A stretch of DNA of 55,615 bases, taken from positions 1-55,615 of the forward strand of contig JYFJ02002524.1 in assembly GCA_000934665.2 (NCBI GenBank), written 5' to 3'. This DNA comes from Catajapyx aquilonaris. Lineage: Eukaryota. Of the stretch, positions 134 to 55,615 are shown in pieces. Within the stretch, counting starts at the first letter, position 1. Every line of letters begins with the position of its first letter. Made by a program: the position numbers and the translations under genes. The notes under the pieces are model-generated. The model was not told the origin of the DNA, ran no database searches, and saw nothing but the letters and a program-made list of their open reading frames with translations.

Positions 134-135
134 TA
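1..135 (+). mobile_element. 3' tail of a non-LTR retroposon/SINE ending in (ATG)n(ATT)n
   Basis: cgctggctacccc..tgggatta..gccgtgaag followed by a trinucleotide tail; alignable to 24470-24556 and, in reverse, to 410-466. Confidence 0.55.
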
Positions 136-409
136 CTAATAGACTTTACGGTCACTATATTAATAGTCAATGTGAAGATACTGTGTTTTCGACGGTTATT
201 ATTTTAAGAGGGAACATTAATAGTTAACAGTGTCTAACAGTTATTTATTATTTTTGATAGTTATTATTCTAACGGTTAATACTGACAGGTAATAGCAGCC
301 AAGAGCTCATTTTAATTTAATATTATATCGTAATAGTAGCGAATAGTATTATTTTATGGTCATCATATTAATAGTCAATATTGTTATTTTTGACGGTTAT
401 TATTTTAAT

Positions 410-466
410 CATCATCATTATCATCTTCACGGCGTTTCCCAAACAGATATGGGGTTGGCAACCCCA
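410..466 (-). mobile_element. 57-bp 5'-truncated retroposon insertion with a 12-bp TSD
   Basis: Flanked by tattattttaat (398-409 and 467-478), with an (ATG)n tail on the minus strand. A homologous empty site is visible at about 191-230. Confidence 0.7.
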
Positions 467-2261
467 TATTATTTTAATAGGTAACATTAATAGTTAACAG
501 TCACAAAGAGTCATTTTACAGTTATAACAGTTAATACCCGATGGTTAACAGCAGCCAAGAGCTCATTGCGATTTACTATTATTATTGTAATCGAGGCTAA
601 TAGTATTTAAAGTCATTATCCTTATGCGGTAGTTAAAAAGAGTTAACAGCGGCCAATAGAGATTTAATGGTTTAATAATAAATTAACAGTTGGTCGGAGC
701 TAAGAGTTCTATTGTGGTTGTTATTCTAACACTTAATATAAGAGTGGCCAAGAGATAACTAATATATTTTAGTAGTATAACGGTTATATATTTGTTGGGC
801 ATTATCTTATTTGTTAATATTAATAGTCAACAGCAGCCAGTAGTTATGATTAGTAGCTAGCTGATAGTAGTTAATAGTTATTTCGGTGGTTATTATTCTA
901 ACAGTTATGAGTAGATAATATTAGCCAAGAGCGAATTAAATAACTTTTTCTTCGCAGAAACGTCTATCATTTATTGTTCATGTATAATATTGAGGAGACA
1001 CTTGCTCCATGAAGAGATACCACGTGCGTAACTTAGGGTTTCCCTCGTGTTGAGATGACGTCAGCGCATCATTTCGTTACGTAACAATCATGCTAACGAC
1101 CCTGTACCCTACATTTCACTTGTAATTAATTTTGCACCGACAGTTTTTTTTTTAAAGAAAAAAAGCTTGGAGATATAATAAACAGCTGTTGCTACAAGGC
1201 CTGCTGACTTTCGGCCTGGGAATTCAGGTACTAGTTACGCGCAGTACATTGCATTATTACAGTGCAGTACTCGCCCGATCTCTAAGGACATTTTAATAAG
1301 CATATGAAAGGTGAATCAATAAGTCCTTAACTGGCGTTGATTGAATTCAATTGATTCAAACTGATTTAGAAACAAATTAATATCTTCCCACAGGACAGAG
1401 TTGCAAGACCGTCAAGAGACTTCATAAGCGACTAATATTGGATTCTTCTCACAGGGCTTATTTTAATAGTTACTAGCAGATAATTCTAATTAAAAGAGTT
1501 GGTAGCTATTTCCGGCTATGTTAACTAATAGTTAATGAAAGCCAATAAATAATTTATAAGTAACAATAACTGGTAGCCATTATAATAGTGAATTGGATTG
1601 GCACTATATTGATAGTAATATAATAGTCGTTATTTTAATAGTTACTTATAACAGTCGTAGAATGATTTAAATATATGTTTAAGTTATCTATGATCATTTT
1701 AAAAATAAGGTCAATAAAATGGTTTCTTTCAACTTTAATAATTGTAGTTCTTACTTCTCTAACTGCTTATACTGTATAATCTTGGTAACTTTCTTTATAT
1801 TTGTAGCCATCTTGAGGAGGCACGGTTGCCACATTTTGGAGCTCCCCTCGACCAAACAATCGCAATGAGTTTGACAAGCGGTAAATGGTATACCGATTAA
1901 ACCAACCCCTCGTCGGTATCACTATTTTATTTACAGTAGTCCGTATGTACAGTGTGTGTATTTACTGTAGTTCTGGCTTTTCTCTTACAGGTGCTTGAAT
2001 AGTGTGTGTTGCAGGCCATTTGTAGTCATAGAAACAGGGGATTGCGGAAATGGGAGGGGGCTTTAACAGGCATTGCGTTGCTGGGGGATGGGGAGCCCAC
2101 CACGCACCACTGTACTACGGATGGCAAAAAGTTGGGGACATGGGAGCAGATTGTGTTTTGTTGACTCGAGCGACCAAAGTTTGGCGCCTCAACAGGTGTC
2201 ATGCCATTGGTCAATATATGCTGGAAAATTTGTGCAATTCAGCCTGACAGGCCCTCAACTT

Positions 2262-2620
2262 AATAAAGCAACTAATGTTTCAAAACTAATAATAACAATG
2301 AATAGCAACTAATGTTTCAAAACTACTAATAGCAATGAATAGCAACTAATGTTTCAAAACTAATAAAAACAATGAATAGCAGCTAATGCTTCAAACATAA
2401 TAATAGCAACTAATGTTTCAAAAATAATAATAATAGCAACTAATGTTTCAAAAATAATAATAATAATAGCAACTAATGTTTCAAAAATAATAATAATAGC
2501 AACTAATGTTTCAAAAAAAATAATAATAATAGCAACTAATGTTTCAAAAATAATAATAATAATAATAGCAACTAATGTTTCAAAAAATAATAATAGCAAC
2601 TAATTTTCAAACCTAATCAT
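2262..2620. repeat. Minisatellite, about 27-39-bp unit aatagcaactaatgtttcaaaa(aat)n
   Basis: About 11 tandem copies, with length variation in the aat run. Confidence 0.9.
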
Positions 2621-3589
2621 AGCCATTAACGTTTTGTGTAGCTAATGACGCCCAACTAATATTTTCTGTGACTAATAAAGAAAACTAATATTTCATAACA
2701 ATTTAACTAGCTTATAACCATATAATACTGTAGCTAATAGTTTATAACCACAATACTGCAGCTAGTAGTTTATAAATCCCATATCATTAGTGTTATACCA
2801 TCTAAAGTAGCTATCTCAAAGTAACTGCTTAAATAAGCGTACTCTGGTTTTAAAACGTTTAGCTGACCGTTCAGAGCTATCTTAACCTACCGTTAACTCT
2901 ACCGAACGTTAAATGGTGGAGAAACCGCCAGTTAATAATTGGTCTGCAAAAGCAGGTATTAGTCATCACATCTTAACAACGAGTTAAAATGTTGGAATAT
3001 TTTTGTGTTAAACTTCCGTTAACACTTAACGGCCAGTTTAAGGACATAAGGAATGAAGTGGAAAATGTAGGAAAAGTAGTGGGGCCTCAGCGCTAATAGT
3101 TCCTGATCATTCAAGTAGGGATCTTACCGTGCTTTGACCAATCCGGAATTAGATCCGGATCGGACCCCTACCCTTTCCCTCACTTTTTCATAACAAAGAG
3201 AAAAAAAAGAATGCAGGTTAGTAGCCCATCTTTTCCCGGATTGATCCGGGCATGGACAGGCAGTCCCTGCAGTAAAACCGACACCTGCACCGCCAATAAA
3301 TCCGGGCCGAATTGTGCTCCGGATTAATAAGGCGTTGCCATGCGCCACCTACCCTCCCTTCCCTCCAACCCTCTCCCACACAGCTAGACACACACACACA
3401 AAATATCCGGGACCAAATGTCAAAGTCAAACCCGGAAACAATTTGGACCACATTCCCCCCCCCCCCCCCCCNCTACTCACACTATACGTTTGTTTATTAC
3501 GAGGATTTGCTGCCCAAGTTGACGGTCCCAGGATGTTAAGAGATTAATTGTCGAATTGTCGACTCCAGCATCCAGAATTTTACATACAA

Positions 3590-4030
3590 TTTTTAATTTT
3601 TGTCAAATTAAAAATTCGTCCAGTGGAATTTTCGTCCTAATTGAATAAATTATTCTCGTTCAGTTGAATTTTTGCCCAATGAAATTCTCATCCACTGGAG
3701 ATTTCTTATATTGTAATTTTTGTCCAATGAAATTTTGTCCCATGAAATTTCCTAAAGACATTTCGTCAGGAGGGAATTTTACAATATTTTAGCCAAATTG
3801 AGAATTTCGTCCAATATTCGTAATTTCTGTCCATTTTCTATTTTAGTCAAATGAAAATTCGTCCGCTGGAATTTCGCCCAATGGAATTTTCGTCCCATAG
3901 TAACTTCCTAAAGACCTTACTGTAAGTACAATGAAAATTTGTACTTTTTGCCCAATTTAAATTTCGTCCGATATTATTTTCGACCCGTGGAATTTCGTCC
4001 AATGGAATTTTCGTCTAATTAAACTGGACA
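3590..4030. repeat. Degenerate array of (gg)aattt(t)cgtcc(aat) units
   Basis: Recurring aatttcgtcc/ttttgccc motif; same vocabulary as 17330-18430. Confidence 0.75.
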
Positions 4031-4589
4031 ATAATTATAGTCCACTCTATAACACAAGTCCCACATGTCTTTTTGAAAAAGTGTTGAAATATCTGCACTG
4101 CATTCTGGGCCACACATGGCACCCAATCCCCCACCCACAATCTGAACATATCGATTTATTTGCCCCCCCCCCTCTCTTTTCCTGTTGGATTTTACCCCCT
4201 CCCCTCCTCTCATGATGTTGATGTTATTATCATCAATCTTTCCTCTGATTCAACCGAACTAGTCAAATGTGTGATACTCATCCGGCTCTAATCCTGCATG
4301 AAAATATAAGCTTCTTGGTAACAGTTAGTTATTACCCGCGGAATAATCCAAATTAAGCCCACCCTCCAAATGTTGCTACCAGAGGGAGGGGGGTTGGGGA
4401 GGGTGGAGAGGTAGAGGGGGATGGAGTGGTTTTGATTTTTTTTTCTTTTTTTTTGGAGTTCCATCCGATCTGGATGGAGTGCACTTATCGCACTTGAATT
4501 CGTTAGCGTACATTGCCAATATCAGTTTTTTTTTCGGACTGAAGCAGTGATGGGGAAAAGGGGTTGGAAAGACGAGGCCTATACGGAAA

Positions 4590-5340
4590 CCTCAACGTTG
4601 ATGGGAATTTGAACGAAAATATGAACGATAACGTGTACGTAGACGTGAACAATAACGTGTACGTAAATATGACCCTAGCTTGTACAATACGTAAACATGA
4701 ACCTAGCTTATTGTACGTAAACATGAACTATAACGTGTACGCAGACATGAACGATTACGTGTACGTAAACATGAACTATAGCGTGTACGTAAACAAGGCC
4801 AAATTAATGTGTACGCAGACATGAACGATAACGTGTAACATGAACCCTAGTGTGTACGTAAACTGAACGAAAACGAACGAAATAGTGAAAAAACGTGAAC
4901 ATAAAGGTGAATAATAGCGTATACGTAAACGTGAACCAGAGAGAGTACGCAGACGTGAACGATAACGTGAACGTAAGGGTGAATGATAGTGTATACGCAA
5001 ACATGAACCCTAGATTGTACGTAAAACTGAACAACAACGAACGAAAAAGTGAATGAAAACGTGTACGTGAACGAGAAAGAGAACCAGCATGAATGAAAAC
5101 GAGAACGAAAAAGTGAACGTGAACATACTGTAGTCCTACACTTTAACGAAGACACAAACTTACATGTGAAGGAAGCACAAACTTACTCCGGAACAATAAC
5201 GTAAGCGGAGACCGAAATGTAGAACAGACCCGTGAACGTAAACGTAAACATGAACCGGAACGTTGGACAAAAATTGTGATTTTATCATGGACAGTAAACG
5301 GGGATTGGAACAGAAACGTAAACATAAAGGATAACGTAAA
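4590..5340. repeat. Degenerate array of aacgtgtacgtaaacatg units
   Basis: Recurring gtacgtaaac/gtgaac words with internal segment duplications. Confidence 0.8.
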
Positions 5341-5879
5341 GGCTGGTAGAACCGGCCATATTATTTCAATGTGGCTAGAATCGGAAAAATTAACCGGACG
5401 TGACGTAACATAGCGAATCGTAACAGATTTTTAGACACCCCAGCGCCACACTGTAGCAAAAATCAGAAAATTCCACTCAATAGATGGCTCCACTAACCAC
5501 CTCTCTAGAGTTACCCCAGTAGGACAAAGTTACCCCTACCAATTAGGACGTCCACGTGGCTTCAAAACCAGCGATGGAAATACCACCCTTGCGGTAAATG
5601 CAGCGGACGAGGAAGCGATTTGTAACAAGATAAACCAATTCGGCGGTTAATGAGGATAATGTGTAGTAAAGTGAAGCAAGCAGGATTCCCCTCCCCCCTC
5701 CCCCCCTTCCCCTCTGAACATAAAAAAGCGGGTTGGATGAGCTATTGATCGCAAGGGATACGCTCAATTTGAACTTGGCTTACCCATTACGGGGACTCAT
5801 GTTCAACTCCGGTGGGCTCACAATAATCGCCGTTTAGAACATTATTTGCATTCAATTACTTGGGCCTGGAAGGGACACT

Positions 5880-6800
5880 TGCGGACGACGGATTGACGCG
5901 GGATTGCTACAGGGATGACGTGTTGGCAAGAGAGGACGTATAGTGACATATTGACGTGTTGTCACAGGTAGACGTACTGACATGTTGACGTACGGTATTG
6001 TCAAAGGTGGATGTGCTGACAAAGGGGGGCGTCGTGACATGCTGACGTATTTCCATAAGGTAGACACTCTGATATGTTGGACGTATTCTCAAGGCTTTAC
6101 GTACTAGCATGTTGGACATACTGGCAGAATAGATGTATTTCCAGTGAGAACGTATGGATAGTGCAGAAGTGGACGTGCTGACATGGACGTGTTCACAGAG
6201 GGAACGTACTGACATATTGTCAATGGTGGGCTTACTGACATGGTAAACATTTTGCCAAGGTGAATTTATTGGGTGTGAACTCTTAGTGAGTTGACGTGTA
6301 CGTCAGAAGGGGACGTAGTGACACTGTCGTTTTCCTCGAGCGAATGCATTGCCATTGGTGGACGAATTGTCCAAGGTGAACATATTTAATGCAAAATTGA
6401 GTCATGTTCGACCTGCTGACAAGGTGGACGTACTGTCCAGATGACCGTAGTGTCCAGGTGAACGTATTGGCATAGTCTTGTACTGACATGCTGAACGTAC
6501 TATCAAGGGTGGACACGGGTTGACTTATTGAGAGTGTGAACCTTTTGACATGGCTTAACGAGAAGTGCAGAAGTTGACGTATTTTCCACGTGTTTCCAAA
6601 GCGGAGTCAGAAGTGTTTATGAGAATGTACGTTTTATATAAGTAGACGTACTGCCATGCTGAACTTCTTGACAATGAATAGTGCTCACACTTAGGACATT
6701 ATTATTGTCGGGTTGACGTATTTTTCTAGCTGCTTAGAGTAGACGTGTTGACAACGTGACATACTGCCAGAACTAGCCGTATTGTCAGTGACGGACAGAT
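5880..6800. repeat. Degenerate array of ggacgtactgacat units
   Basis: Recurring gacgt/ctgacat/aaggtg motifs. Confidence 0.7.
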
Positions 6801-7289
6801 TGCCCCGAGTGATTGGAGTCGAGTTTGGGTTTTTTTTTGTCTCTCAGGCCCAGTACACACTTCAAATACTCCCCTGATCAATTGCACTAAATTTTGCACA
6901 ACAAAGCTAATGGAGATGGAAGAGTGGGGTGGGCCAGTACGGGATGGGGAGGTGGGGGGTGGGAGGTAAAAAAGCTAAGTGATATTTGGCCTTGACATAT
7001 GCAACATGCGCCATTTATGAAATAATAATGCTCGCATTTCAACCGTGCTTTTTTCACTGAATAAGTCAAACCCTGCTGGAGTTATATATTTTAAATGAAG
7101 CTCGGGGTGCAGCAGGGCCGAGCATTAAAAGTTCAATCTGAAGGGCACGAAACTAGTACGAATTGACATTTAAATATAGTGGGTGCCATGGACTACACTG
7201 GACTACGCTGGACTACAAATGGCTACACATGGGAAGATGACCTACTAATGGCTGGTTGCTGGGTTGAACAACTGATGTGACATTGACAG

Positions 7290-7735
7290 GAACATGATTG
7301 CCCAAAATGGTCGTCAGCAACTTGGTTGCCTATAATGGGTTGCCAGCAATTTTGGTGACCATAATAGTTGCAACTACGTTGCTCAATATGGGTTGCCAGA
7401 AACTTGATTGCCCAAATGAGTCTCGAGCAACTTGGTTGCCTATAATGAATTGCCAGAAATTTGGTTGCTCAACATGGTCGTCAGCAACTTGGTTGCCAAA
7501 GTGTGTCACCGGTAACTTGGTTGCCCAAAATTGTCCACGGCAAGTTGGTTGCCTAAAATGAATTGTCAGAAATTTGGTTGCTCAACATGGTCGTCAGCAA
7601 CTTGGTTGCCATAATGGGTCGCCGGGCAACTTGTTTACCCGAAATTGTCGACGGCCAGCTGGTTGCCCAAAGTGAATGTCCAGCAACTTCATTGCCCAAA
7701 ATGGGCGCCAGCAACTTGGTTGCTCAAAATGGCTG
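7290..7735. repeat. Array of about 30-bp units built on the palindrome gcaacttggttgc
   Basis: About 14 copies of cagcaacttggttgcc(caaaatgg) and variants. Confidence 0.85.
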
Positions 7736-8849
7736 CGGGTGTGAATCTCCTACCCGTGAAACAAGACTTCCAGAGGCGCGTGTAATGAGTCCAAGTGTAT
7801 GCGAGAAAAGGCGACATTAAATTTCATTGGTGTTTCTCTCCCTGGAAGACATGGATGGAGAGCAAACCCGCCTCTTCCATGTTGTCTCCCAGTTCATTCC
7901 GCTGGCATGGTTGCACGCAAACTAGGCCGATTTACGAGTCCAACATCGCGCACATCTAGCATCAAGGCTCGCCAGTCTCTGCGAAAAACTATGCAAAAAA
8001 AAACACTAACAGCGACTCATATTTTAAAACCGGAATAAATGCGCGGGTCAAATGCATTTTGAATATTCATGTACAGTATGTTTATTAGGGATGGATAGGC
8101 CCGATTGTTTTGTAAATATTGCCAAATTATGGATGCTATATAACTTCTATGTGCAAAATATTTTGCGGCCAGCATGGATTGCGTAACATGTGCACAATAT
8201 TTTGTTTGTTGTTAAAATTAATAAATTATGCTAAATAAAATTAACATTTTTGAAGAATCAAACATAATCATTGAGCCAGGACCATATTATGGTAATTTAT
8301 CGTATCTTCAATCCCACCGAAGTGTTTCGTAGAGATGAGTTACATGCAAGACCAGACCGGTGTTGTAAAGTGAACCCCTTCGAGAGGTCATCATTTCCTG
8401 GTGGACCAATCCTCACCTCGTCTATTACCCACCAGTCAAAAGACAGGCGCCTTCAGACTGCTAAACACCCAGGGGGTTGCTCTGGTGGGTGGGGTGGATG
8501 GGTGGGAGATGCAATTTGGTTGCATGTCTTTCTTTTCAGATGGTGGGACATTAAGGAGCCATCACCCAGCCTGGAGTTAATTTGGGTGCAGGCACTTAAC
8601 CCAATGCTGTTGATTCGAACGTGCCTCTTCCTCCCATTTCTCCTCCCCTCCTTCCCTCATCGTAAAAGGGATATTCTGACCAATCAAACTGGGCGGAAAA
8701 TTAATGTTTCGGATGATGTCAAGGAGCTGGGAAGGATGTGCAATTAAACCTGCCTGGGGCGTATCTCTTTTGCATTGCGGACACTTGTGTACCGAGGGAA
8801 AGTTTTGCGATTATAATCCCTCATCATGTAGCGTTACCAGAATATTATT

Positions 8850-9650
8850 ATTTGTACATAAATTAAAATATATAAACCTAAAAGCGTGCTAAAATGACAA
8901 ATTTACAAATTAAAGCATGCTAAATTAATAAATTAATAAATTACCGTAAGACGCGTGAAAATTAGCAAATTAATAAGCTAAACCGTATTAAAGCTAATAA
9001 ATTAACACATTACTTGTGCGAAAATGGGTTTATCATGATTATTGTTATTAATCAATAAATTAATACGTTTAACATAATTAATTAATTAATTAATAATTGA
9101 ATACATTGTAACACATTTAGTTAATTTATTAATTTATGCATTTATTTAATTAATAAATAATTAACACATTTTAACACATTTAATTAATTTATTAATTAAT
9201 GCATTATTTTATTTAATTAATTAATGCATTTTAACACATTTAATTTGATAATAAATAAATACATTTTAACACATTTAATTTGATAATAAATAAATACATT
9301 TTAACACATTTAATTTGATAATAAATTAATACATTTTAATACATTTGATTAATAAATTAATAAACTAATACATTTCAATACATTTCATTAATAAATTAAT
9401 AAACCAATACAGTTTAGCACATTTAATTAATTAACAGGTGAATACATTTTAACACATTCAATTAATTTATTAATAAGTTAATACATTTTAACAAATTTAA
9501 TTAATTAATTTAATTAATACATTTTAGCACATTTAATTAATTTTTTAATAATTTAATACATTTAGCACATTTAATTTATTTATTGTTACAACTTTTAAGA
9601 CACAAATTGACAAATTATTTCATTAATAAGCATTTTGTCTTAAATCTTGC
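8850..9650. repeat. AT-rich array with a 35-bp core unit taatttgataataaataaatacattttaacacatt
   Basis: Near-perfect copies at 9241-9345; degenerate on either side. Confidence 0.85.
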
Positions 9651-10939
9651 AAAAATAATTAAAATGTCTAATATTTATGGATTTTAAAGCAAACTAAACA
9701 AAACGAACCCGTAGCAAAATATTGATTAGAAGGTATTAATTATTATTTAAAAATTAAGTTTACATTTATGAAATATCCCGATCATATCGTGCCTCGACGG
9801 TCAGTTAAACGCTGCTGACATTTAAACTACCTATAGTTAGCTCTAGCGGCCACAGTTAAACAATAGTTAAGCAGTCAAAAATAACTTGTCTCTCGATACA
9901 TGCTAAATTCGAATGTGATAAACTTCGCCAAAATTTCGCCAAATTAAGGCTGAACTCGAGTCCTCCGCCATCTATGGACCGAGTTGCCAATTCAAAGCCT
10001 CACGGGTTGGCCACCCCTGGCAGTCAACTCTAGACCGCCGACTTACGATCATCCCAAAAGTGGTGCAAAAATTGTGCGAATATCTGTTGCCAATAATTCT
10101 GGGTTGGCGAAAAGTCGGTCATTCCTGTCGAGGAATTCGCAATGAAAACCCCCCCTCCCGTGCTTCCGGATTAATTTAGATTACCCGAATGGCACGCAAT
10201 TAGGACACTCCCCAGTGGCATCCAAACAATGCCATGAATCGCCCCAAAGAGGGCGGGGATGAAGGGTTGGGGGTTTGGGTTGGGGGGGGGGGGAGGAGGG
10301 TCAAAATTGTCCCATGACCAATTATGGACATAGGGGATTTTTTTAAAAAAGACTAGAAAATGACGACTGTTTCGCATTTGATGGTTTTTCCGGGGCCTCG
10401 GTCGGGCTTTCAATCCGATGATGGCTAAACCTTGTTTACATTTCCGCATTGCCCGCTATGAAAATTCAATTTAAGCAAGGTTGCCAAAATGTCCACTCGT
10501 TTCAAACTCACCGGTATATACTAGTAGTGCGAACCGGCCCGTAAATCATTATGATTTACAGCGACACCCGAGTACTGGTTTAGGGGGCGGGGAAAAAACC
10601 CGACTGTTAATTAATCAGTTTGCACCCGTGGGTGACGTAAAGAAATTTTACTGTTGAAAGCAGTGTTGCCAACAAGGCGACAATATTTTGGCGAATAGTA
10701 ACACAATTTTTAACTATGTTGATGCATGTCATACATAGCAACGTTCAACAGGATGGGAGAAGTTCGAATCGCTATTCCTAGCAACTAACTTGCAGAGAAG
10801 CAACTATTACAGAAGCCCATTGCTGGGGTAAACAATCAGCAATTTCGTCCCGGTCATAAAGGTTCATTTAAAATGTGAGGTAAGAGAAATAATATACAAT
10901 CATTTAATGAAGTGTGTCTAACATGCAATAGAAAACTAA

Positions 10940-42817: not shown

Positions 42818-45050
42818 TTATGATAAGAAAACTACAAATTTTTTGTGTTTTATTTGGACTAAATGATTCGCAATAACCTCCCTGGTTCCAACCTGTGTGA
42901 CATGTCCTGCCCTGACGTGTGTGTCCCCGTAGCCAAATGACCATTGGACCAATTTTTGGGGGGTATAGAGAGAAGAGAAGAGAGGAATAGTTTCCGAGTG
43001 AGTGGCTCGTCATTCATTTCTCGCTGAAGCTCCCCCCGATCGATTCTCTCTCGCTTTTTTTCCCCTCCTCCTCCTCCTCCCGCTTTTTATGGCTAACCCA
43101 CTTTATTTTGGCGGACCTGCTTTCTGGAGATTTTTCTCGCGGGGCCATATATCCAGCTTCACTGGTTGGAGGAAGGGAAGGAGGGGAGGGGAAAGAAGGA
43201 GGATGAATATCTACCAAACATATTGGGGATGCTGTACTTGGCTTTTTATCGTGTACTGTTGACGACATAAATGCAGTGGACATGCGATATATCGATATAT
43301 CAGAATATGTTAATTATATATTTTTTGAATATTATGAACTACGTAGGCCTCACATTTCATTTCGAGTGCTCTCTCTAGGTATTATATATATTAAAGCAGA
43401 ACTCTTTGGGTTAGCCTTTTAGGTATATGATACAATATACCGGCAATTAAAAGCTAATTATTATTGTCATATAATAAATTAATGATACAATAACATGTGA
43501 TGTAACATACTAACATAGAGGTGAAGCATACGGCAGGTGTTAGCAACCTTTCCCTAAACAGAGACGTCTCTGCTATGTCTAAATTCGTGTAGATGTCGGG
43601 GGCTGGACTAGTGAGCCTGAAGGAAGTTCATTGTCGCTCAATTACCGTCCTTAATTGTCGTCCAATCTAGTTTCCTAAGTCTGTCTTGTTCTCCTTCAAA
43701 CCCTGGAGGAGTTTGTTAATGAGCGAATCTGATACCCGGTTGCCCCGGATCCATTTCCCACAGCCGGACACTCTTCCTACATTAAAGTCAGCGTGTAGCT
43801 CCCAGCATAAGCCAATCAGCGCTTTTGTCTTACTCTTGCACACGCACACACAAACTATCTCACTGCCTCAACCTTCTCAACAATAGGCCAGCCCCCTCCA
43901 AGCCATTTTTGCAGACCAACAATGGTTCCTGCTGGCTCCGGGTCATTCCGGAAGTGCCTTCCATTTTTGCTCAAAAATGGAGGGGAGGGCTACCAAGGGA
44001 TGAAACTCATTCTTTTCTTCTTCCTTGCTTCCTCCCATCTTCACAACGGTTCACTCTCTTCTTCCACTTTCCTGCCCCTTTGTTGCACCCGGGCGAATCT
44101 CTTCTATGGAGCGTTCTGTATAGATTGATAAGCTTAATGGGCACTTTCACCCTCCGACCCTCTCGACCTCCTCCTCCTCCCCCCTCCCCTTCCCATATAC
44201 CCTTAGACTATGCTTTGCTAGAAAAGTCTCAGGTTGCGTATTTTTTGTGTCCGTTTTCTTTTCAGAAAGGTCTGAGCAACGGTTCTCTAATTGAAATTTG
44301 CCTCCAGCTTTTCTCTCTCTCTCTCTCTCTCCCTCTCTCTGAATATCGGGATCCGTTTAAAATGTCTTGAGACGGCGTATCGTTAACTTGAGATTGGCAG
44401 CTTGTCACAACCCTGGATTTTTTTTTTATCGACAAGAGTTGGCCCGTCTTGAGAGGGAGCAATTATATGGGTTGGAAGCTGTAAGATCGAGCGATTTAAC
44501 CTTTTAAACACTTATCGGGATCGTCGTGGCAACACTGTTCCTGATCCAGGTGGCACCACAGGTCTCTCCAATTGCTTAACTGGCCGTTGAGAGCGGCAGT
44601 TAACCTGTAGTTAGCAGTGTGACAAATAAGATAAACAAGTAATAATTGTTCGATCGTTTCTGTTAAAAAAATACATTAATTTATTTTCAGCTTCAATCTT
44701 GCCTATATGCAGTAAATTTTAATGATATTTATATTCAGCTGCATTTGTAGTTATAGTTTATATAGTTGGTTTATAAATAACAAAATAACAAATTAAGCAA
44801 AATAAAACGTCCAATGAAAATAACCCAGCTAAACTAACCAATGAATAAAATATCCTCACCAATTAAATAAATAACTAGTAAATAAAACAGCTAACAAAAT
44901 AACCTGTAAAATTAATAACGATACGGTATTTACGCTTTTCATTATTATTAAATAAATTTTTATTGTGTTGCTTTGCGTTACTTTACTAAATTTTATTGTG
45001 CATTATACTTTACTAAATTTTATTGTGCATTATACTTTACTAAATCTTCT

Positions 45051-45258
45051 TGCGTATACATATTACAATAGTAATATTTCATATTGCGTATACATATTAC
45101 AATAGTAATATTTCATATTGCGTATACATATTACAATAGTAATATTTCATATTGCGTATACATATTACAATAGTAATATTTCATATTGCGTATACATATT
45201 ACAATAGTAATATTTCATATTGCGTATACATATTACAATAGTAATATTTCATATTGTG
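45051..45258. repeat. 34-bp minisatellite tgcgtatacatattacaatagtaatatttcatat
   Basis: About 6 perfect copies. Confidence 0.95.
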
Positions 45259-45384
45259 TATTAGATTGCATATAATTTTGTATACATTCGATTTTATTTT
45301 ATAGCTACTTTTATTTTACCATATATATTTATAGCAATTTTATTTTATATTCATCTGCAATTCTGTATTTATTAATTATTTATT

Positions 45385-45600
45385 AATTATTTGTATTACT
45401 TATCTGTTATGGATATTATTTGTATTACTTATCTGTTATGGATATTATTTGTATTACTTATCTGTTATGGATATTATTTGTATTACTTATCTGTTATGCA
45501 TATTATTTGTATTACTTATCTGTTATGCATATTATTTGTATTACTTATCTGTTATGCATATTATTTGTATTACTTATCTGTTATGGATATTATTCGTATT
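45385..45600. repeat. 29-bp minisatellite ttatttgtattacttatctgttatg(g/c)ata
   Basis: About 7 copies. Confidence 0.95.
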
Positions 45601-46799
45601 ATTTTACATTATATTTTATATTATGATGTAGTTTATTATTTTATATTTATGATATAGTTTATTATTTGGAACCAACCCCGTGCAACAATTGAGCGTCGTG
45701 CAACCTCTGGCCTTCATCTTGAAAGACTCTGTTGGCAAGAAAAAGCAGGCCATGCAACCAGATGAAGTGACATTTTTACCTCCCAGTCCCTGCCGTTTAT
45801 TTTTATTTGGAGTTCAATAACTGTTTCGCAGGGAAAGATTTAAGAGGGGGGGGGGAGGGGGGTTCTGAAAATGGGGAGAGGGAGGGAGGGGAGGGAGGAA
45901 GGGAGGAAGGGAGAAACGACGGGGACAAATCACCCCCAGGAAATTGCTGGAAACGACGGAACCAGTTCCAGCCAAAGCAATTGGGACCTGATTTAACCAG
46001 TTGTATCACAGAGTGTTCGGACCATACCCTCAGCTCTTTATCATTTTTTAAAAAACACAAGATGGCGCCGACACCCTAAAAAGAGAGAGCTTCAATATTC
46101 GAGCCAGAAAAAAAAATGTTTAATTCCTTTTGAAATTGAAGTGTGCTAAGACCCTTTGCGTTAAGTGCGGAGCAATACTTTATGAATGGTTCTTCAGGAA
46201 AAAAAAGTCACTCGTTTCCATTCCTATTAGAGTGCAAAAGGCGAGATGGGGGAGGCCAATGGGCTCATTTGCATCTCCAAATTCCTACCTTGGCATCAAG
46301 CCCAGATACAACTCGAAAAAAAAAATTGTACGAAAAGATGGTAATGACCTGTGTTATGCTATACGAACAAAAATCTGCGCCAAAGCTTGGTAATTACAAG
46401 AGAATATGCCCTTTTTAAAACTGGGTGTGAATTTTGTTTTCATGTGGAGCTGGCCGTGCAATAGAGCCGAATAGAAACACTGTAAACTATTATTCGCGTG
46501 ATATTTAAAAACACAACAACAACATTCACGTCTATATCACTTTGTTTGTGTTCGCGCCTGATTTTCCCTTAAAAACTACGTAGTTCGCCAAAAAATTGCA
46601 AAAACTGCACTTTTCACGCCTACGCCACCAAAAATAGTCCAACACATTTCCATAATCCACGATTTATTGTTTGCCATCCTTTTATATTTTCCCAACAATA
46701 TCTCGCTTTCCGTTTACAATAAACGTAGCCTACATAACAACCAAACCTATCCCACATAAACTAGTAAAAGTATGCCCGATGTTTTTATAAAATGTTCTG

Positions 46800-47250
46800 G
46801 TCAAAATAATAATGTACTAATTAAATAACAAATGTAATAAATCACGAATAAAATAACTATTAAAACTTATGATCAATATGAAACAGCCAATAATTGAAAT
46901 AACTAAGAAATAAAATATCCAGTAACAAATTTAGTAAGTGACATTGCTAGAAAAATAATGTAACTTACCATACCTAGCAAAAAAATACAAATAACCAGTT
47001 AACAAAATAATACTAACAAAATGACTAATAAAATAATATATAACTCATAAGTGACTAACAAAAGAAAATCCGGTAACCAATATTCAAGTGACTAACAGAA
47101 GCAAACACTCGTAACTAATAGGTGACGAATAAGAGCAAAATAATTAGTGACTAATAAAAGAAAATAATCCGTGACTAATAAAAAGTGACTAATAAAATTA
47201 CTGATAAAAGAAAATGACTAATAATTAAAATGACTAATAAACTAACAAAA
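46800..47250. repeat. Degenerate A-rich gtgactaataaaa array
   Basis: Recurring gactaat/taactaa words. Confidence 0.65.
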
Positions 47251-48049
47251 TCCTCCAGCTACTGTATATAGGCCAACATACTGATTGTTCATTAGAAACA
47301 TCAGTAGAGGCTATCCATTTGAAATAAATAGCATCTTAGGTCAGCGGGTTATGGCCAACAAGGATGTTGTTGGTCAGCCTGCATATTCACTTACGGATAT
47401 AAAAAATTCAATCTCTTATATTGGCACCTCTGACAACTAGCTGCCTCTATTCCCTCCCACCTAAAAAAAGGAAAGAATGGTCTGCGAGAAGGGAAAAAGG
47501 TCCAGCTTGAAGGAACGGTCCAGAATTGGCTCCAATTTGGGGTCCAGATTCCGACATCTCCCCTTATCCCCAGCTCCCTCGTCCTTCCCAGCCTTCCCCC
47601 CCTGACCAAAAGCCGCACAATGAGCCCAATCACGTGATTCCTTACCCCCAGAGTCCGGTCAACTCTCTCTCTCCCCCATCTCCCCACCTCTCACTCTCTC
47701 CCTCTTCCCCCCAAACCGGCCCTCCTGCCAAGCCCCAAGTGGAAAATGGCCAATTACCGGAACACCGCCCAAGTTTTTGGCCCCCACTGCTCAATTGCCC
47801 CCTCTACCTTCACCAGGGGGCTCCATTGTTGCCATTTCCAGACAGCCCCCCACCCCAGAGGGGGGGCCAGACTTCCAGTGATTTTAATTCGGTGGGATGT
47901 AACAATGGCCTCTACTGTCGCGGATTCTTGAATAGGTAGCGTCATATGTTCGGAGAGTGGGACTGGTGGGGGTTTTACTATATTAGACCGGGATTAGGTG
48001 GGTCTAAAATGTAAATGTACGCACCGCCGAAGCGAGTACTACAATCCGA

Positions 48050-49420
48050 TTCATCGTATAATATATAGCATCGATAATTTGAAATTACAAGCCGATATGA
48101 CGCATTATCGATGGATATAACCATTATAAATGGATATATCAAATTATCGATATGATTGCAATATAATCAATATATCTCATTATCGATATGATTACAATAT
48201 TATCGATATATCTCATTATCGATAGGATGCCAATATAATCGATATATCTAATTATCGATATGATTATAATATAATCGATATATCTAATTATCGATATTAT
48301 TACAATATAATCGATGTATCGCATTATCGATATGATTACAATATAATCGATATATCGAATTATCGATATTATTACAATATAATCGATGTATCGCATTATC
48401 GATATGATTACAATATAATCGATATATCGAATTATCGATATTATTACAATATAATCGATGTATCGCATTATCGATATGATTACAATATAATCGATATATC
48501 GAATTTTCGATATTTTTTCGAAATTCAAAGTCGATTTGTTTCTTTATCAACGAGTTTAACCATTACAAATCGAAAAATCACATTCATTTTAAAGCGTAAA
48601 TCGATATATCTCATTATCGATAGGATGCCAATATAATCGATATATCTAATTATCGATATGATTATAATATAATCGATATATCTAATTATCGATATGATTA
48701 TAATATAATCGATATATCTAATTATCGATAGGATGCCAATATAATCGATGTATCGCATTATCGATATGATTACAATATAATCGATATATCGAATTTTCGA
48801 TATTTTTCGAAATTCAAAGTCGATTTGTTTCTTTATCAACGAGTTTAACCATTACAAATCGAAAAATCACATTCATTTTAAAGCGTAAATCGATATATCG
48901 GATTATCGATAGGTTTGAAAATTACAATCCAAAGCATTGTATCATCAATGTTTTTGATAATACAAGTCGATATGTCGCATTATCGATGCATTTGACCATT
49001 ATAAATCGATACATCGTATTATAGGTATGCTTGAAAATTACATTCCACTCTAACGATTATGCGATATTTTTGAAATTTCCTGCCTACATGTCGCATTATC
49101 AATACATCTGACCATTAAAAATCGATATATCACGTTAGCAGAATATAGCAAATTACAAATCGATGTAGTCTATTGCATCGTTGACATTAAAAAATATACA
49201 AGCCGATATGGCGCATTATCGATGCATTTCACGTTTCCCCATTACAACTTGACATATCCTATTATAGATGTTTCAAATGACTTATCGATATAATCACATT
49301 ATCCATTTACAATATTCTTTTTCGATTCGGTTTCGATATTTGGTGTCGAACAATCGTCATCCAACACTAGGTGTTCGATGTCAATATCGATATTTGCGAT
49401 ATTTACGATATTTTGCTTTA
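48050..49420. repeat. 36-bp ATCGAT-rich array with a higher-order duplication of about 289 bp
   Basis: Unit attatcgatatgattacaatataatcgatatatc(tc/ta/ga); a unique segment aaattcaaagtcg..aagcgtaaa is repeated at 48521 and 48810. Confidence 0.9.
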
Positions 49421-50469
49421 TAAATTGTCATTGTCTAGAATTGACCTGGGAAAAAATGCAGAAAAAAATATATCCAAGTTACGACTGACGGGCATCAAGT
49501 GACGATGATTTGATAAAGAAAGCACGTAGAGACCGTAACTTATAATCGTCGATACAGAAAAAGACCTCGTTAGAAATGCACGTCCTCGCTCCACCCTAGA
49601 CTTTGAAACGTTTCGGAAACTGCTTAACTGTACCATAAGGTGCTTTATTAGGAGCCTAGAAAGCGGGGGTTCCCCCGGAGTTTAATTCCGATTAAACGAA
49701 AGGGAGGGAGGGGGGCAAAACATTCCGGATCGGATTTACGGCCACGTTTTCTTCCCCACCGGCTGCTGGGAATTATTTAGGCAAAGTCACAGCTTCAATA
49801 CTCCTCAAGTGTAATGTACTCACCAATTGCAGCCTGGGGCGACGCGACGGAGCACTCCCAGAGTGGAGACCTGCATCTGAAATGGCGGGGGCAAAAGTTA
49901 CGCCAGGCTTTTGATCGATGGTGGTAAATGGTGGAGGTGTAATAAGCTGGGTGGAAGTTAGACTCTAATGGTGTCCAAAAATGGGGGCAAATGTTGCGAT
50001 TTTTAAAAGTGGCTGGGTAATTGTATATATCAACCTAATTCATATACGGCAGTGCATTTCACCCATCTTTGTGAAACACCCTGTACTTTGCATTGTTGCG
50101 CCCTGAGGTCATTGACTCATAGTGCAAGCACTTCCCTGACAATATGCTACAAAATAATGTAAGCATAACGTTACGCTGGAATAATATCATGCAACGTAAC
50201 CGGATTGTTATGACGCTTCAAGCTATTTAATAAACTCGATGCAAATACATGGCGTATTGCAAACAGATAGGCCCAGACAGTAAAGAAAACACTAATTGTA
50301 CATGGTGTTGCACAACATAAGACCACGGTTCAAGATAGGGCAGATTGTTTACTACAGCAACAAACATGGCTTCCAAAAGGGGATCGGGCCGTTCGTAGCG
50401 TAGCAGTTAAATCCAGTTAAATCACTTCACATTGTTGGCCCTATTTTGAAACACGGAACGGTACTGGGT

Positions 50470-50900
50470 AATACAAAATAAGCTGCTACTGCTTACGGAA
50501 ATAACTATTATGATAGTTGATGCTTGAATCTCCTTAACAGTTACAGTAGCCGTTACTTTCAACACCTTCACCATTAAGATAGCCACTATTTTAAATCCGT
50601 AACCGATATAATCGCTGCTCATGTCAGTAACTTAGATGTTATGATAACCGCTATTTTCATTCCTATTAACCTTCATTAATTCAGTAACTTCTTACCTTCT
50701 TACGTTCTTAAAATCGCTTCTTTCAGCCCTTAACAGTTACAGCAGCCGTTACTTTCAGTCCTTTCCCCATTATGATAGCCGCTACGTTAAGTCCTTAACC
50801 GTTATGATCGCTGCTAATTTCAGTACTTTCACGGTTATGGCAACCGCTTCTTTCAGCCCTTTATCAGCTACACCAGCTGTTCCTTTCAGCCATATTATAA
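50470..50900. repeat. Degenerate ccttaacagttacag/gccgctactttcag array
   Basis: Segment 50532-50640 recurs at about 50728-50840. Confidence 0.65.
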
Positions 50901-50965
50901 GCTGCTTGTTTAGCTGCCGAAACCGAATAGGCCGTTTTCAGCATAGCAGTCTGGTATAGTGCTAT

Positions 50966-51049
50966 ACTCTAACAAAGGCCACAACAAAGACAAAGGAATG
51001 CAGCTGCTGAGCTAGATTACTTTGTCTTTGTAGTAGCCTTTGTTAGAGT
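50966..51049. repeat. 84-bp hairpin (40-bp arms, 4-nt loop)
   Basis: actctaacaaaggccacaacaaagacaaaggaatgcagct-gctg-agctagattactttgtctttgtagtagcctttgttagagt; about 5 mismatches. Confidence 0.85.
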
Positions 51050-52122
51050 CATCGTCAGCTACAAACGTGCCCCTTCTTTATACCAATTATGGTGACAGTT
51101 ATTGGCAAATAGCATATGTCAATGAGCTGTCATCCACCGAATTGACCACTCACGTGACTCCCTCCCCTCCACTCGACTAAAGCCACTGTAAAAGCGTCCC
51201 ATAAAGCGCCTGAACCCCGCTAACAAATAGCCAAATTGACTCAAGTGGTACTTGTGCACTACTTGAGGGCCACGCAAGAGAGAAGAGCATAGCTTTTTTG
51301 GCAGCCTATCAAACGCTCCCTCCCTCCTCCCCACCAAGCATCAAGCACCCTCCAATTGGTCCGATAACCCAATCGACAGAGGGTGATCGAATTTGGCCGC
51401 CGGGGATCGCTACTAAACGCTTCCTGCTGTTGTCATGGCCGACGTCGGAGGATAGAAAGAGGGCACAGGTTGGACGTCCACAACTTAATTGGAGATGGCG
51501 AGAGGGCCTTATCTTTGAGCCGCTTTCATGCAAGGCTGCCAACTTGTCAACGGGGCAAAGTCGGAAGAAGAAAAGATGCGAGACTTAAAAGGAGCTGACG
51601 CGACGGATTAGGGACGAGATGTGTGTACAGGGCGTGTAAAACGCGGATATGGATCGAACGACATCAGGCCACAAACGGCAACGTTGGGGAAAGTATCAGC
51701 TATGTGAATGCAACTTAGCAGCTTTTTTTGGTTTTTGACTAAGGAAATTACCCTGCTGAGACTCCATGTCCCATAAGTTGGAACTCGTATTGTCCCATGA
51801 GTTGGACATCCACTGTCCCATAAGTTGGACATCTACTGTCCCATAAGTTGGACATCTAATGTCCCATAAGATGTGAACATTCACTGCTCAGAAGAAAGAC
51901 CAATCCAACCAACCAACTCTGTGAAGATAGACACACAACTGTCCCATCAGATAAGCATCCACTGTCCTATCAGTTGAACATCATACTGTCCTACAAGTAG
52001 GACATTGTATTCCCTCATAAGGTGGACATCTCATTGTCCCATAATGTGGACATCTTATTGTCTCATAAGTTGCACATGTACTCTTTCATAAGTTGGACAT
52101 GTACTCTCCCATAAGTTGGACA

Positions 52123-52270
52123 CAAGGGGGTAATCACTTCGGTACTCCGGTGTACACCTGGGAGTGGTACTCCCTGGTACTCCTCAGGCACCTCACTCTT
52201 TATTACTCCGTGGTACTCCTTGAATTTGGTACTCCAGTGTACACTTTTCAGTCGAGTTATTACCCCCTTG
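52123..52270. mobile_element. 148-bp MITE with an 8-bp TSD (hAT- or P-like)
   Basis: TIR caagggggtaat/attacccccttg, gttggaca on both sides, and internal ggtactcc repeats. Confidence 0.85.
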
Positions 52271-52597
52271 GTTGGACATGTACTCTCCCATAAGTTGAAC
52301 ATCCAGTTCTCAAAAGATAGAGGAACAATTGTCTCATGGACTGGGCATCTCACTGTCTTTCAATGTGGACATTCAACTGTCCCATCAGATAGTATTCACT
52401 GCCCCATTAAGTGGACATTTACTGTTCCATAAAATTGACATGTATTGACCCTTAAGGTGGACATCCTTCTGACCCATATGTTGGACATCGTATTTCCCCA
52501 TAAGTTGAACATCTGCTGTCTCATAAGAAGACATTCTGCACAATAAGTTGGACACATATCATTACAAAAGATGAACATCTACTTCCACATAAGATGG

Positions 52598-52793
52598 TTT
52601 GTTTGTTTGTTATGCTAAAGTAACTAAGGCTACCTGGCAATCGCATAGTGGGTTTTTGGTAGTGGGAGGAAACGGGAGAATCCCGAGAAAACCCACGCAA
52701 ATACGGCGAGAAAACCCATCGAAGCTCTTTCTACATAAGTGACCTCCGGCCGTCCCGGGGATCGAACTCAGGACCTTCCAGGTGTCTTCCATC
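52598..52793 (-). mobile_element. 5'-truncated tRNA-derived SINE with a V/Meta-SINE-like central domain
   Basis: The minus strand reads B-box gagttcgatccc, then gcgtgggttttctcgggattctcccgtttcctcccac (similar to the V-SINE/MetaSINE core), then an (AAAC)n tail. Direct repeat ccacataagatgg at 52585-52597 and 52794-52806. Confidence 0.75.
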
Positions 52794-54044
52794 CCACATA
52801 AGATGGATACCCACATTGTCCAATAAGCTAAACACAACTGCCTTATCACATTCACTGTCCCGTGAAGTGGACATGTACTGTCGCAAAAGGATGACATTCA
52901 ACCGTCCCATCAGGGAAACATCTCTTCCATGTATGAGGTGGGCATCGACTGTCCCATAAGATTGATATTCAGCAGCCCTATAAGTGGGACAGCAAATATC
53001 CAATATATCAGACAACTCCATGCCAAAGACGCTGGCATCTCGAAGTACCATAAGATGGACACCCCAGCGTCCAAATAAATTGGACATTTGGTATGAATTA
53101 ATTCCTAGTAAACTGTCAGTTCGAGTCAATCGACGGCTACACAATTGGCTATTTTTGTGATCCAAAAATTAGCTGCTATTGATACTCGACCCGCTTATAC
53201 TTGAAAAAATGGCGGCTACCAGTTACTGTAAATATGCTAGATCTATGTACTTAGTCTTAATCACACAGGACACGTTTGCACCAACTTAACTGCCTGATAT
53301 TTTTTTTAAAAAAACCATTTGTTTAACACCCCCTCGTACATTATGAGACCCTACAGTGTTGTGACCCCCCGAGCCAAGCTTGTGGACACAATGATACCAC
53401 AGGTTTGGAGAAAAGCTCTTGCTAATTGGCGCCCCTGGTGTGAAGCCCAGGAAAACACAGATAAATCAAATCAAATTTGCGGACTCCGGGCACCCTTAAC
53501 AGCCCCCCCCCCTCCCCCCACTCCGGAAACTCTCTCTTTAGAAAGTGGCCCGGAACAAGTCTGTTCTACCGAAAGAGGGAGGCATTTAATCAACGTCCGT
53601 ACCAGTCTGGAGGCAGCAAGACAGGGTCACCAGCTCCGGAAAACTTTATCCGGGAGGAAGTGAGGTGGATCAAAAAAAGTTTCGGACAAAAGTATGCACC
53701 CAACATTGTTTGTGACGCCCCCACCAGATGGCTGGGGGTGTCAAGTGGTGGACCTGGGAGGAGGCTAAGAACTTGGAGTGAGTCGTAAGGGAGCTTAGGG
53801 TGAGGCTAGTTGAATAAATAGGTGGTTGGCAACCTCTTGGACACCACCATGAACTAGGTCAGATCTTACGTTAGAAACACCTTGCTAGTAGTTCGGATGG
53901 TTCCCAGTAGATTTTTTTTTACGATGCAAGTAATGCGCACCGACACTCGCGCAGCTGCATTGTTCTCACATCTCACTACGTTCTGCCACTCCTTAGGGGC
54001 TAAATTAACAACAACAACAATAATACCGGTAATAATAATAATTT

Positions 54045-54350
54045 AAAAAGAAATAACTAATATATTAGCAAAAGAAATAACTAATATATTAGCAAAAGAA
54101 ATAACTAATATATTAGCAAAAGAAATAACTAATATATTAACAAAGGAAATAACTAATATGGTAATGAAAGAAATAACTAATGTGTTAATAAAAGAAATAA
54201 CTAATACAGCTATTTATAAAAATAACTAATACAGTCAATTATAAAAATAATAACTAATACAGTGAATTATAAAAATAATAACTAATACAGTGAATTATAA
54301 AAATAATAACTAATACAGTGAATTATAAAAATAATAACTAATAAATAAAA
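54045..54350. repeat. 24-bp then 28-bp AT-rich minisatellites sharing aataactaata
   Basis: Periodicity visible at 54061/54085 and 54255/54283. Confidence 0.9.
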
Positions 54351-55615
54351 TTTAATAAAATTCACACGCGTAGCCCTCGAGGTTCGTCGTTCCAGATCCT
54401 TGGCAACGTCGCAAACTTCCGCTATTTTGTTCTCCCCCAATCGTAGCGTTGGAAATAAGTGCAGCGCAGTATACACCAAGCAGGGAGATATAACCAGCTG
54501 TCATTGATAATCCCAACTGTGCATGCTGCCCGAACAGTGGTGCGCACTTGGTTACGTCCAATGTGTGCCGCCATATTTAATCCAAATTTCTTGATGTTGT
54601 TTTTGTTCTCTAACTGGATTGAAGTCAGAGTTGCCAACCCCTAGAAGGTCACAATAAGTCAGTTGGCAACATTGAATCCGGGTGCCGTACCCGTACCGAA
54701 ACTACAGTACCTAAAATTGCATAGTATGCCAACCGCAGCTTTCCTTGAGCCCCAAAAAAGTGGAAAATCCGCCAGGCGGCACTGCGATCGACAGGATTGC
54801 TACTCCTGCCATTACGCCTTATGGGGAAGCGCGGTTCTCCACGCCTATTTCTCGATCTATGTCGGGGTTTCGGATATCAGCTTATAGTATTTTTATGGAG
54901 GAAATGTGATACACTGTGTATTCTATTTTTCCGACTGAAAAAGGTGCACTTTAGTAGCCCTATGGGTGGGGAATATATTGGGAAAGTAGTAATCGCCACG
55001 ATATGGCGCTCCATATCACTTTAAAAATATCTCGTGAGACCAAATTTTGTCAAAATATTATCCTTTATCTTTGACTGTACGACTGACAATGACAATGGAA
55101 ATTTGATATCTTGTACATCATTAGGCTGTGTCTTTGGATGGGGGCGGCATTGGATAATTTGTGATATATATTGATTGAACCTCAATATAGCCCGCGATAT
55201 AGCCTAATATTATGTCACACAACATGGTCATGTCTTGCTCATTTATATCATGAAATCATAATTATTACAACTATGTGTAAGTTAGCCTATATGAACACAA
55301 GTTAATAGTGATCCTCAACATATTATACATACTTACATCACACAACATGCTCACTCCTGTACACAGTGATCGGCACTAAAAACTTGAATGTAATTAAATA
55401 CTAAATACTAAATACTGAATACATCAAAGGTATTTACATACTTTTGTAAATACATTTCAAGTACATTGACAAGTACATTTGTTAATGTGCAACTAATTTC
55501 TTACCATCACTCATTGGATAAAATAAGAAAACATAACATATTTCTACTTTTATATCCATTCCATTAATAAGCTATATGTTTTCAAGACTTCAACTTCAGT
55601 AAAAGGGTAAGTTTC

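Follow-up and report, generated by a model that had tools for sequence, protein, structure and literature searches.

The stretch of DNA analyzed here, termed the window, is the whole of contig JYFJ02002524.1 (C1203; 55,615 nucleotides) of Catajapyx aquilonaris, whose assembly comprises 285.6 Mb in 20,583 contigs. It contains two adjacent open reading frames (ORFs) resembling ionotropic receptors (IRs), and on either side of these, tandem-repeat blocks alternate with GC-richer gaps. Blocks were defined by a direct 8-mer recurrence score, an objective measure of local repetition that was run alongside Tandem Repeats Finder (TRF). TRF gave 96 rows in the window, and the score gave 26 blocks covering 33% of it; blocks are ~0.27–1.7 kb long, with a median GC content of 0.31 vs 0.44 in gaps. 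Across a set of 118 blocks, the dominant lag has a median of 31 bp. They have the properties of minisatellites: tandem units of ~10–100 bp form arrays of 0.2 to a few kb, the flanks are unique, and neither genome searches nor read depth indicate a high-copy satellite. The blocks are mostly AT-rich, locus-specific and backed by reads, with ~20 unrelated unit types in this single 55-kb contig. Their alternation with unique DNA is a real regional feature of the genome, and a non-periodic one.

Read depth over positions 1000–20900 (three libraries, one sample) is mostly 25–50x over blocks and islands alike, and the block pattern is therefore neither an assembly artefact nor a collapsed high-copy satellite. 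The exceptions are a short interspersed nuclear element (SINE)-like element, an element near 12 kb, and stretches at 2x (10960–11623) and 3–5x (14944–15607); the 2x stretch suggests a collapsed array, and some block lengths are lower bounds. One sequencing run, X5, gave cover on repeats only. An earlier note on this contig had described tandem arrays alternating with unique islands every 2–2.5 kb. The alternation stands: 24 of the 25 block starts it listed coincide with an objective block, the one at 20880 being too degenerate for scoring, and its list lacked only the blocks at 136–821 and 27298–27613. The interval does not, since its starts (IR gap excluded) lie 1.0–3.5 kb apart, with a mean of 1.9 kb, and only 9 of 23 distances fall within 2–2.5 kb. 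It was also correct that neighboring blocks differ in unit, with 24 of 25 adjacent pairs sharing almost no 9-mers.

Table 1. Minisatellite blocks, genes and other features of the window
Position	Strand	Feature
136..821	no strand	degenerate AT-rich block, TAATAG/AACAG words; dispersed 53-bp fragment at 408–460
2199..2738	no strand	minisatellite block, unit 27–37 bp
3568..4060	no strand	~15-bp degenerate block, AATTTTCGTCC words; word family common to 17299–18501
4553..5298	no strand	ACGT-rich block, unit 24 bp, 64% matches
5948..6674	no strand	GACGT/CTGACA block, degenerate, very old
7216..7780	no strand	GCAAC/GTTGC block, 28 bp; higher-order periods 57 and 113 bp
9070..9628	no strand	TTAATTAA block, unit 35 bp, GC 0.14
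10897..12614		compound block, units 42, 30, 29–34, 49, 29 bp, both orientations; dispersed element ~11985–12270
13635..14083	no strand	TACGTA block, units 40 and 32 bp
14760..14959	no strand	hairpin (inverted duplication), single-copy, directly ahead of ATCGAT block
14975..16473	no strand	compound block: ATCGAT array (44–73 bp), then degenerate CCGGAT array
17299..18501	no strand	GGAATTC block; 32-bp near-perfect core, degenerate flanks
19340..20230	no strand	TAACTA block, 35 bp (scored 19641–20128), inverted tail, split by SINE-like insertion
19385..19700	no strand	SINE-like element, very high copy; summed depth ~70,000 in its bin
20880..21960	no strand	block of earlier note; CTACTACCTG words scattered, under objective threshold
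24549..24817	no strand	38-bp block, GC 0.09–0.12
26147..26762	no strand	TTGAG block, unit 24–25 bp
27298..27613	no strand	near-perfect 11-bp array; adjoins hairpin element (27632–27842) like a miniature inverted-repeat transposable element (MITE)
28550..29139	no strand	compound block, units 31, 17, 47 bp
30858..31692		compound block, units 37, 25, 45 bp and (AAT)n; then nested dispersed elements 31677–32564
33347..34009	no strand	block related to 30858–31692; sole adjacent pair with appreciable 9-mer sharing
34628..35830		block of inverted duplications, arms 131 nt and 89 nt; 35653–35809 copies the 36793 array in inverted orientation
36793..37565	no strand	CTACGT block, units 27 and 31 bp
38478..40388	+	intronless IR-like ORF 1; array-free; Lig_chan E 5.7e-6, under gathering score
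40629..42506	+	intronless IR-like ORF 2; array-free; Lig_chan E 3.9e-7, just under gathering score
44795..45675	no strand	compound block, units 27, 34, 29, 26 bp
46925..47304	no strand	GACTAATA block, degenerate
48072..49315	no strand	ATCGAT block, 36 bp, with 290-bp secondary duplication
50453..50848	no strand	degenerate block
51714..52600	no strand	GGACA/TGTCC block, 23–24 bp; dispersed element at 52122–52270
53974..54407	no strand	AATAACTAAT block, unit 24–28 bp
822..53973		the 24 gaps between blocks, IR pair excepted: mostly 0.5–1.7 kb, one 4.4 kb; GC ~0.44

The blocks arose by duplication of local sequence, direct as well as inverted, which recurred at the same sites. In genome-wide match searches, where very common words were skipped and the best 39–40 candidates scored, the sole match to 7280–7740 is itself, and 12260–19340 finds, besides itself, a probable haplotig and a single short, weak match; the other stretches of the window find short dispersed elements, simple repeats, or 66–79% matches limited to AT-rich arrays. 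Within blocks, age gradients place young cores inside old margins. Between blocks, 9-mers are common to 11 of 122 adjacent pairs (9%) vs 34 of 6995 pairs across contigs (0.5%). The probable haplotig, C17015, is probably the allelic contig of the window. It differs from 18991–19310, the initial 320 bp of flanking sequence, by three substitutions, and its version of the 35-bp array has other unit variants throughout, as seen in one sample. Because the SINE-like element is missing from C17015, it may be a polymorphic insertion. The proposal that blocks are made by local duplication and continually rewritten is thus borne out by degenerate margins around young cores, the 290-bp secondary duplication and inverted copies, and further by the differing unit variants on the probable allelic contig.

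The arrays might instead descend from transposons: they could be what is left of repeats that lay inside or near the termini of old Helitron, MITE or foldback families, decayed and later amplified in place. Helitron minisatellites are a documented source of arrays, and one report derives the periodic An/Tn clusters (PATCs) from them (bioRxiv 10.64898/2026.08.08.743475). Consistent with such an origin, the core words ATCGAT, TAACTA, TACGTA and GGCAAC recur on unrelated contigs, the 35-bp TAACTA array (around 19720) has loose relatives of 66–76% on ~30 other contigs, and an inverted pair of 27-bp arrays (35653–37500) flanks a unique segment of ~1 kb (35830–36830) in a foldback-like arrangement. 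However, the recurring words are over-represented in ordinary non-coding DNA too, the matches to the TAACTA array end at its edge with the flanks unmatched, and the inverted copy matches this contig only. Some 20 units in one contig, and dispersed pieces that number 17 and make up 6.8% of the window, also argue against this origin. Moreover, no termini are shared among 154 blocks examined on two strands, hairpin MITE-like elements aside; terminal inverted repeats outside the arrays exceed the null in 28 of 150 blocks, and the cases listed among these are hairpin elements or self-complementary units. Unlike the internal repeats of Helitron, MITE or foldback families, the blocks therefore have no conserved termini at other loci, and there is one inverted array pair (35653/36838). 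The earlier note had named arrays lying inside Helitron or MITE families as the finding that would tell against its own view, and this was not what was found. We consider a transposon origin quite improbable. Palindromes, as a candidate feature of the units, were rejected (6-mer palindrome observed/expected 1.05 in blocks vs 1.07 in gaps, P 0.92).

Several dispersed elements of the window are recognizable in their own right. At the start of the contig (1–141) stands the 3' end of an element with many dispersed copies and then (GAT)n(ATT)n, probably a long interspersed nuclear element tail. On C678, C2097 and C264 there are copies, at 88–92% identity, of a hairpin MITE-like element at 22467–22847. 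An element of ~500 bp with terminal inverted repeats (31934–32430) sits inside a second dispersed element, and the latter is present in empty form on C1473, C218 and C854.

The spacing of the blocks bears on whether they form a chromatin lattice, with selected, length-constrained spacers on a ~2-kb period acting as nucleosome barriers, origins, loop anchors or PATC-like insulators. The GC spectrum of the window has a broad hump at 2.1–2.4 kb, and with hand-set ends for the blocks of the earlier note the coefficient of variation of the gaps is 0.43, for which P ranges from 0.0004 to 0.20 depending on the assumed minimum gap (significant up to 400 bp, not at 500 bp). A density of ~5 blocks per 10 kb is common to three contigs, and AAA/TTT phasing within blocks peaks at 10.0 bp. 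Against this, the objective blocks at 1–38 kb are spaced with no greater regularity than blocks placed randomly without overlap (P 0.27–0.70), successive gaps pooled over seven regions are uncorrelated (serial correlation −0.02), and gap length does not compensate block length (P 0.61). The autocorrelation rebound is reproduced by a renewal shuffle of the window's blocks and gaps (P 0.34), and sister contigs C900, C264 and C774 peak at 3.1, 3.4 and 1.7 kb, respectively. Moreover, block lengths span ~0.27–1.7 kb, and the pattern is missing from the greater part of the genome. The other three A/T patterns lack any 10-bp phasing specific to blocks, and the units do not come in helical multiples (P 0.42–0.50). 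A fixed ~2-kb period was thus rejected, and a lattice appears very improbable; neither the regular spacing nor the length-constrained spacers proposed in the earlier note are supported. The ~2-kb scale is the sum of the block median (~0.6 kb) and the gap median (~1.1 kb), and the apparent rhythm is packing, with no clock or length code.

The gaps do have a lower size limit. Blocks either abut, forming compounds, or stand ~0.5 kb or more apart, such that gaps under ~0.5 kb number 9 of 108 vs 23.9 expected. When real blocks were dropped randomly into array-free DNA and the pipeline rerun (25 replicates for each of three margins), 17–24% of gaps were short vs 8.3% observed; with hidden margins of 200 bp the null was 17.4% and its lowest replicate 10.3%. 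This deficit bears on a neutral interspersion, in which a high duplication rate leaves gaps of ordinary DNA, coalescence and undetected old margins remove the short gaps, and short-read assembly caps the blocks. Such an account is aided by pooled regularity that is weak and threshold-dependent (seven regions; P 0.007–0.78 in 8 settings and 0.12–0.95 in 10 stricter ones), by transposon-like pieces residing in the gaps, by read depth that suggests at least one collapsed array, and by gap 6-mer spectra, which lie closer to array-free non-coding than to genic DNA (r 0.27–0.46, vs 0.42 between the array-poor contigs C1 and C2). It is opposed by the survival of the deficit at 200-bp hidden margins and by sharp edges, the GC change being complete within ~100 bp of a block. 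The C-to-G polarity of the gaps described below would also be unexpected for random leftovers. We give neutral interspersion a real but minor chance.

Of the 24 gaps in the window, 20 have a strand polarity, being C-rich on the left and G-rich on the right (P 0.0015 by sign test); the same holds around 24 of 32 GC peaks in C900. This polarity is known from divergent CpG-island promoters (PMC4617957). It is consistent with islands that drive the duplication themselves: open, divergently transcribed, GC-richer DNA would draw germline breaks, and repair of the resected flanks would write tandem and inverted duplications on both sides. GC peaks indeed lie 100–350 bp outside block edges, and isolated AT-rich blocks are found between divergent genes or upstream of genes, near GC-rich 5' regions, in C2746, C395, C441, C144 and C1; these gene-adjacent cases were chosen through array matches, with no null comparison. 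On the other side, the likeness to CpG-island promoters weakens outside the window, where the polarity holds in 48 of 84 gaps of other contigs and is not significant; G tracts have no strand asymmetry; arrays are few in the similar DNA of C1 and C2; and a GC signal at third codon positions (GC3) is absent. We regard island-driven duplication as unlikely, and its fullest form as, if anything, slightly more so: there, each open, divergently transcribed element of ~1 kb would be a germline break site that writes a private minisatellite into both flanks, within discrete domains. The idea of the islands as discrete units nonetheless retains the scarce short gaps in its favor, along with the polarity within the window.

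The G/C tracts cited as island centers all exist (16 of 16). They do not center the islands, however, with 46 of 99 tracts across all array-rich regions in the central half of their gap. None of the 30 tracts in the window lies in a block; their density in window gaps is 1.0/kb, against 0.91/kb (C1) and 0.53/kb (C2) in array-free non-coding DNA, or about twice that of C2. G-quadruplex (G4)/origin G-rich repeated element-type origins and G4 break sites have their G-rich strand always on one side of the feature, at a set distance. Here, the 5' block of the G strand is the closer one for 50 of 99 tracts, with medians of 528 and 597 bp, and tract-centered islands of this type were rejected; with neither centering nor strand asymmetry and an ordinary tract density, a G4-based role is not supported. 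At 28376–28428 a poly-C run passes straight into a poly-G run, the junction being marked by an N. Each of the window's five Ns (3472, 18785, 20495, 27054 and 28402) falls within a C run or next to one, and tract lengths are thus uncertain.

Blocks are concentrated regionally. Their density is 4.7 per 10 kb in the window, 5.0 in both C900 and C774, 3.3 in C264, 3.0 in C2097 and 2.6 in C2388, vs 0.7 and 0.1 in the array-poor C1 and C2. A random sample of 60 tiles of 5 kb held 25 blocks (0.83 per 10 kb), 43 tiles having none and 5 having at least two, and the window exceeds this rate at a Poisson P of 6e-12. Homeobox DNA is depleted, with 2 blocks in 119 kb (0.17 per 10 kb; P 0.003 vs the random rate) in a sample comprising 30 loci (94 kb, partly coding) and a small set of 5 intergenic tiles between homeobox genes (25 kb). 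The densities in the window, in random tiles and near homeobox genes thus identify a regional state, which C900, C774, C264 and C2097 share. C900, which came from the random tile sample, has no Pfam match among its 112 ORFs. In C264, blocks lie between the exons of myosin-IX and around Lon and argos and are missing where exons are dense, indicating that exons can act as islands; among developmental regulators, argos is the one case enclosed by an array-rich stretch. Together with the Lig_chan-type receptor genes, argos also points to an arthropod genome. CpG observed/expected is ~1.0 in the Lon, EFL1 and myosin-IX exons of C264, some genes elsewhere are CpG-depleted, and genes do not sort cleanly by array density. 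Several candidate correlates of the regional state were rejected: developmental regulatory landscapes, by the depletion at homeobox loci; and methylation state or GC-biased conversion, by a rho of 0.07 between block count and CpG and by GC3 and CpG of 21 genes, which do not split array-rich from array-poor contigs. Several unrelated blocks in C264, C2097 and C900 are built on words resembling RFX X-box, DRE, CRE and CCAAT sites, a likeness that may be due to chance.

Beyond the two IR-like ORFs, the window holds 151 ORFs of at least 75 residues, and the 150 scanned gave one spurious match, inside an array. Several inter-block gaps contain short dispersed elements, and there is no credible Pfam match in the gaps and no Rfam or tRNA match in the window. 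The IR-like proteins are very divergent, with Lig_chan scores under the gathering cut-off. The two genes are 89–100% identical at 38605–39101 and 39502–39801 and 64–81% identical elsewhere, a patchiness that suggests patchy gene conversion. A search with IR-like ORF 2 found no relative at E 0.001 among proteins of 343–1094 residues, and neither protein searches over those lengths nor metagenomes yielded relatives for a conservation comparison.

The explanation we favor, with a confidence just past even, is that a regionally high rate of short-range templated duplication saturates tolerant DNA around refractory pieces of ~1 kb. The contig would sit in one of several genome domains (~1/12 of sampled tiles) where such duplication is frequent. 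Slippage or template-switching break repair would copy 10–80 bp (median ~31 bp), direct or inverted, and a site that holds a repeat would re-amplify, yielding young cores in old margins, abutting compounds and the occasional seeding of a neighbor. Blocks would fill insertion-tolerant DNA and halt at unique pieces of ~0.5–1.5 kb that resist overwriting, some of them probably cis-regulatory modules or, elsewhere, exons. At saturation, block and gap would add up to ~2 kb, with no need of a clock, a spacer-length rule or a tract signal. Local origin, turnover, regional clustering, lack of order and scarce short gaps are all observed. The repair pathway is suggested by analogy with human break repair, which favors templated insertions and tandem-repeat gain (PMC7615360). 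Partial constraint on the islands is something we infer by analogy with the Drosophila elements of PMC3632565, and the origin of the domain would likewise have to be inferred, CpG state and GC3 having given no clue. All five listed minor-allele clusters outside the SINE and poly-C lie within blocks or ≤50 bp away (P ~0.036, with five table rows left out and a null cover of 52%), which fits turnover within blocks and weakly favors constraint on the islands.

Several observations weigh against regional duplication around refractory pieces. The pattern is near-absent at homeobox loci, and a 44-kb plexin intron is also nearly devoid of blocks, although regulatory modules should be dense in both. 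The TAATTA enrichment of C1 and C2 is absent from the window islands. Transposon-like pieces lie >300 bp from any block in 20 of 39 cases vs 12.6 expected, a pooled result opposite to the expectation that transposons would gather at blocks and keep out of islands, which was rejected. The lack of a GC3/CpG split leaves a recombination-domain cause without support here. Neutral coalescence of arrays could account for the loss of short gaps. Finally, array-rich contigs other than C900 were picked via array matches, and the plateau of ~5 blocks per 10 kb is thus partly selected.

Comparison with known systems reveals partial likenesses. Repeats and unique DNA alternate on a 1–2-kb scale, as in short-period interspersion. 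The classical form of the latter concerns dispersed repeats, whereas the repeats here are local tandem arrays. The blocks also resemble locus-specific minisatellites of the variable number tandem repeat type in their tandem units and unique flanks; as for variation between alleles, the one probable haplotig (one sample) has different unit variants. In Drosophila, conserved sequence block (CSB) clusters form ~1-kb units in gene-poor DNA, one per 1.1 kb, with variable, poorly conserved spacers, and enhancer assays covered 19 of them in a row (Kundu et al. 2013, PMC3632565). The present islands share the ~1-kb units, variable spacers and gene-poor setting, with a median gap of ~1.1 kb. CSB clusters, however, are defined by cross-species conservation and the islands by the sequence of one genome; tandem-array spacers are undescribed in the available portion of that source, and unlike an enhancer archipelago, the present pattern is depleted at homeobox loci. 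It may work like an enhancer archipelago whose spacers were overwritten by minisatellites, but membership is not claimable from one genome's sequence, and homeobox loci lack the pattern.

The autosome arms of Caenorhabditis elegans are repeat-rich and highly recombining, and form chromosome-scale domains whose repeats are mostly DNA transposons (PMC6239182). Like these arms, the array-rich domains are far richer in repeats than the rest of the genome, introns included; unlike them, they hold locus-specific blocks, extend over 25–65 kb or more, and alternate with array-poor DNA within contigs. Human germline tandem-repeat instability, at hotspots and telomeres, involves templated insertions, template switching and a gain bias below 2 kb, which fit the block anatomy (PMC7615360); the present arrays differ in being mostly AT-rich, and GC3 gave no support. 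As with the PATCs, AT-rich minisatellites of ~30–35 bp turn over rapidly in non-coding DNA. They differ from the published description in lacking a Helitron context and in their many unrelated units. Their 10-bp phasing is not consistent across patterns: one of four peaks at 10 bp specifically in blocks, and unit lengths are not phased. Vertebrate nucleosome-inhibiting energy barriers (NIEBs) are predicted genome-wide from a physical model, at 0.65 per kb in human, and are not defined as tandem arrays (PMC6028776). NIEBs share the ~1-kb-scale GC alternation and a similar density (~0.5 per kb here), whereas the present repeat blocks of 0.3–1.7 kb are confined to domains, 43 of 60 random tiles being block-free. 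A partial search of the literature found no account of a domain-wise patchwork in an arthropod.

Overall, a periodic chromatin code does not hold, and what remains is a clear record of the birth, turnover and local spread of minisatellites. If the gaps prove conserved, the arrays would freely outline regulatory modules in a genome that lacks comparative data. Were the blocks instead written by element-driven break sites, sequence by itself would suffice to trace regulatory elements by their blocks, and the domains would chart a separate repair regime, one from which homeobox landscapes are shielded. These domains would allow us to ask whether germline break repair, rather than transposons, drives the expansion of non-coding DNA in some arthropods.

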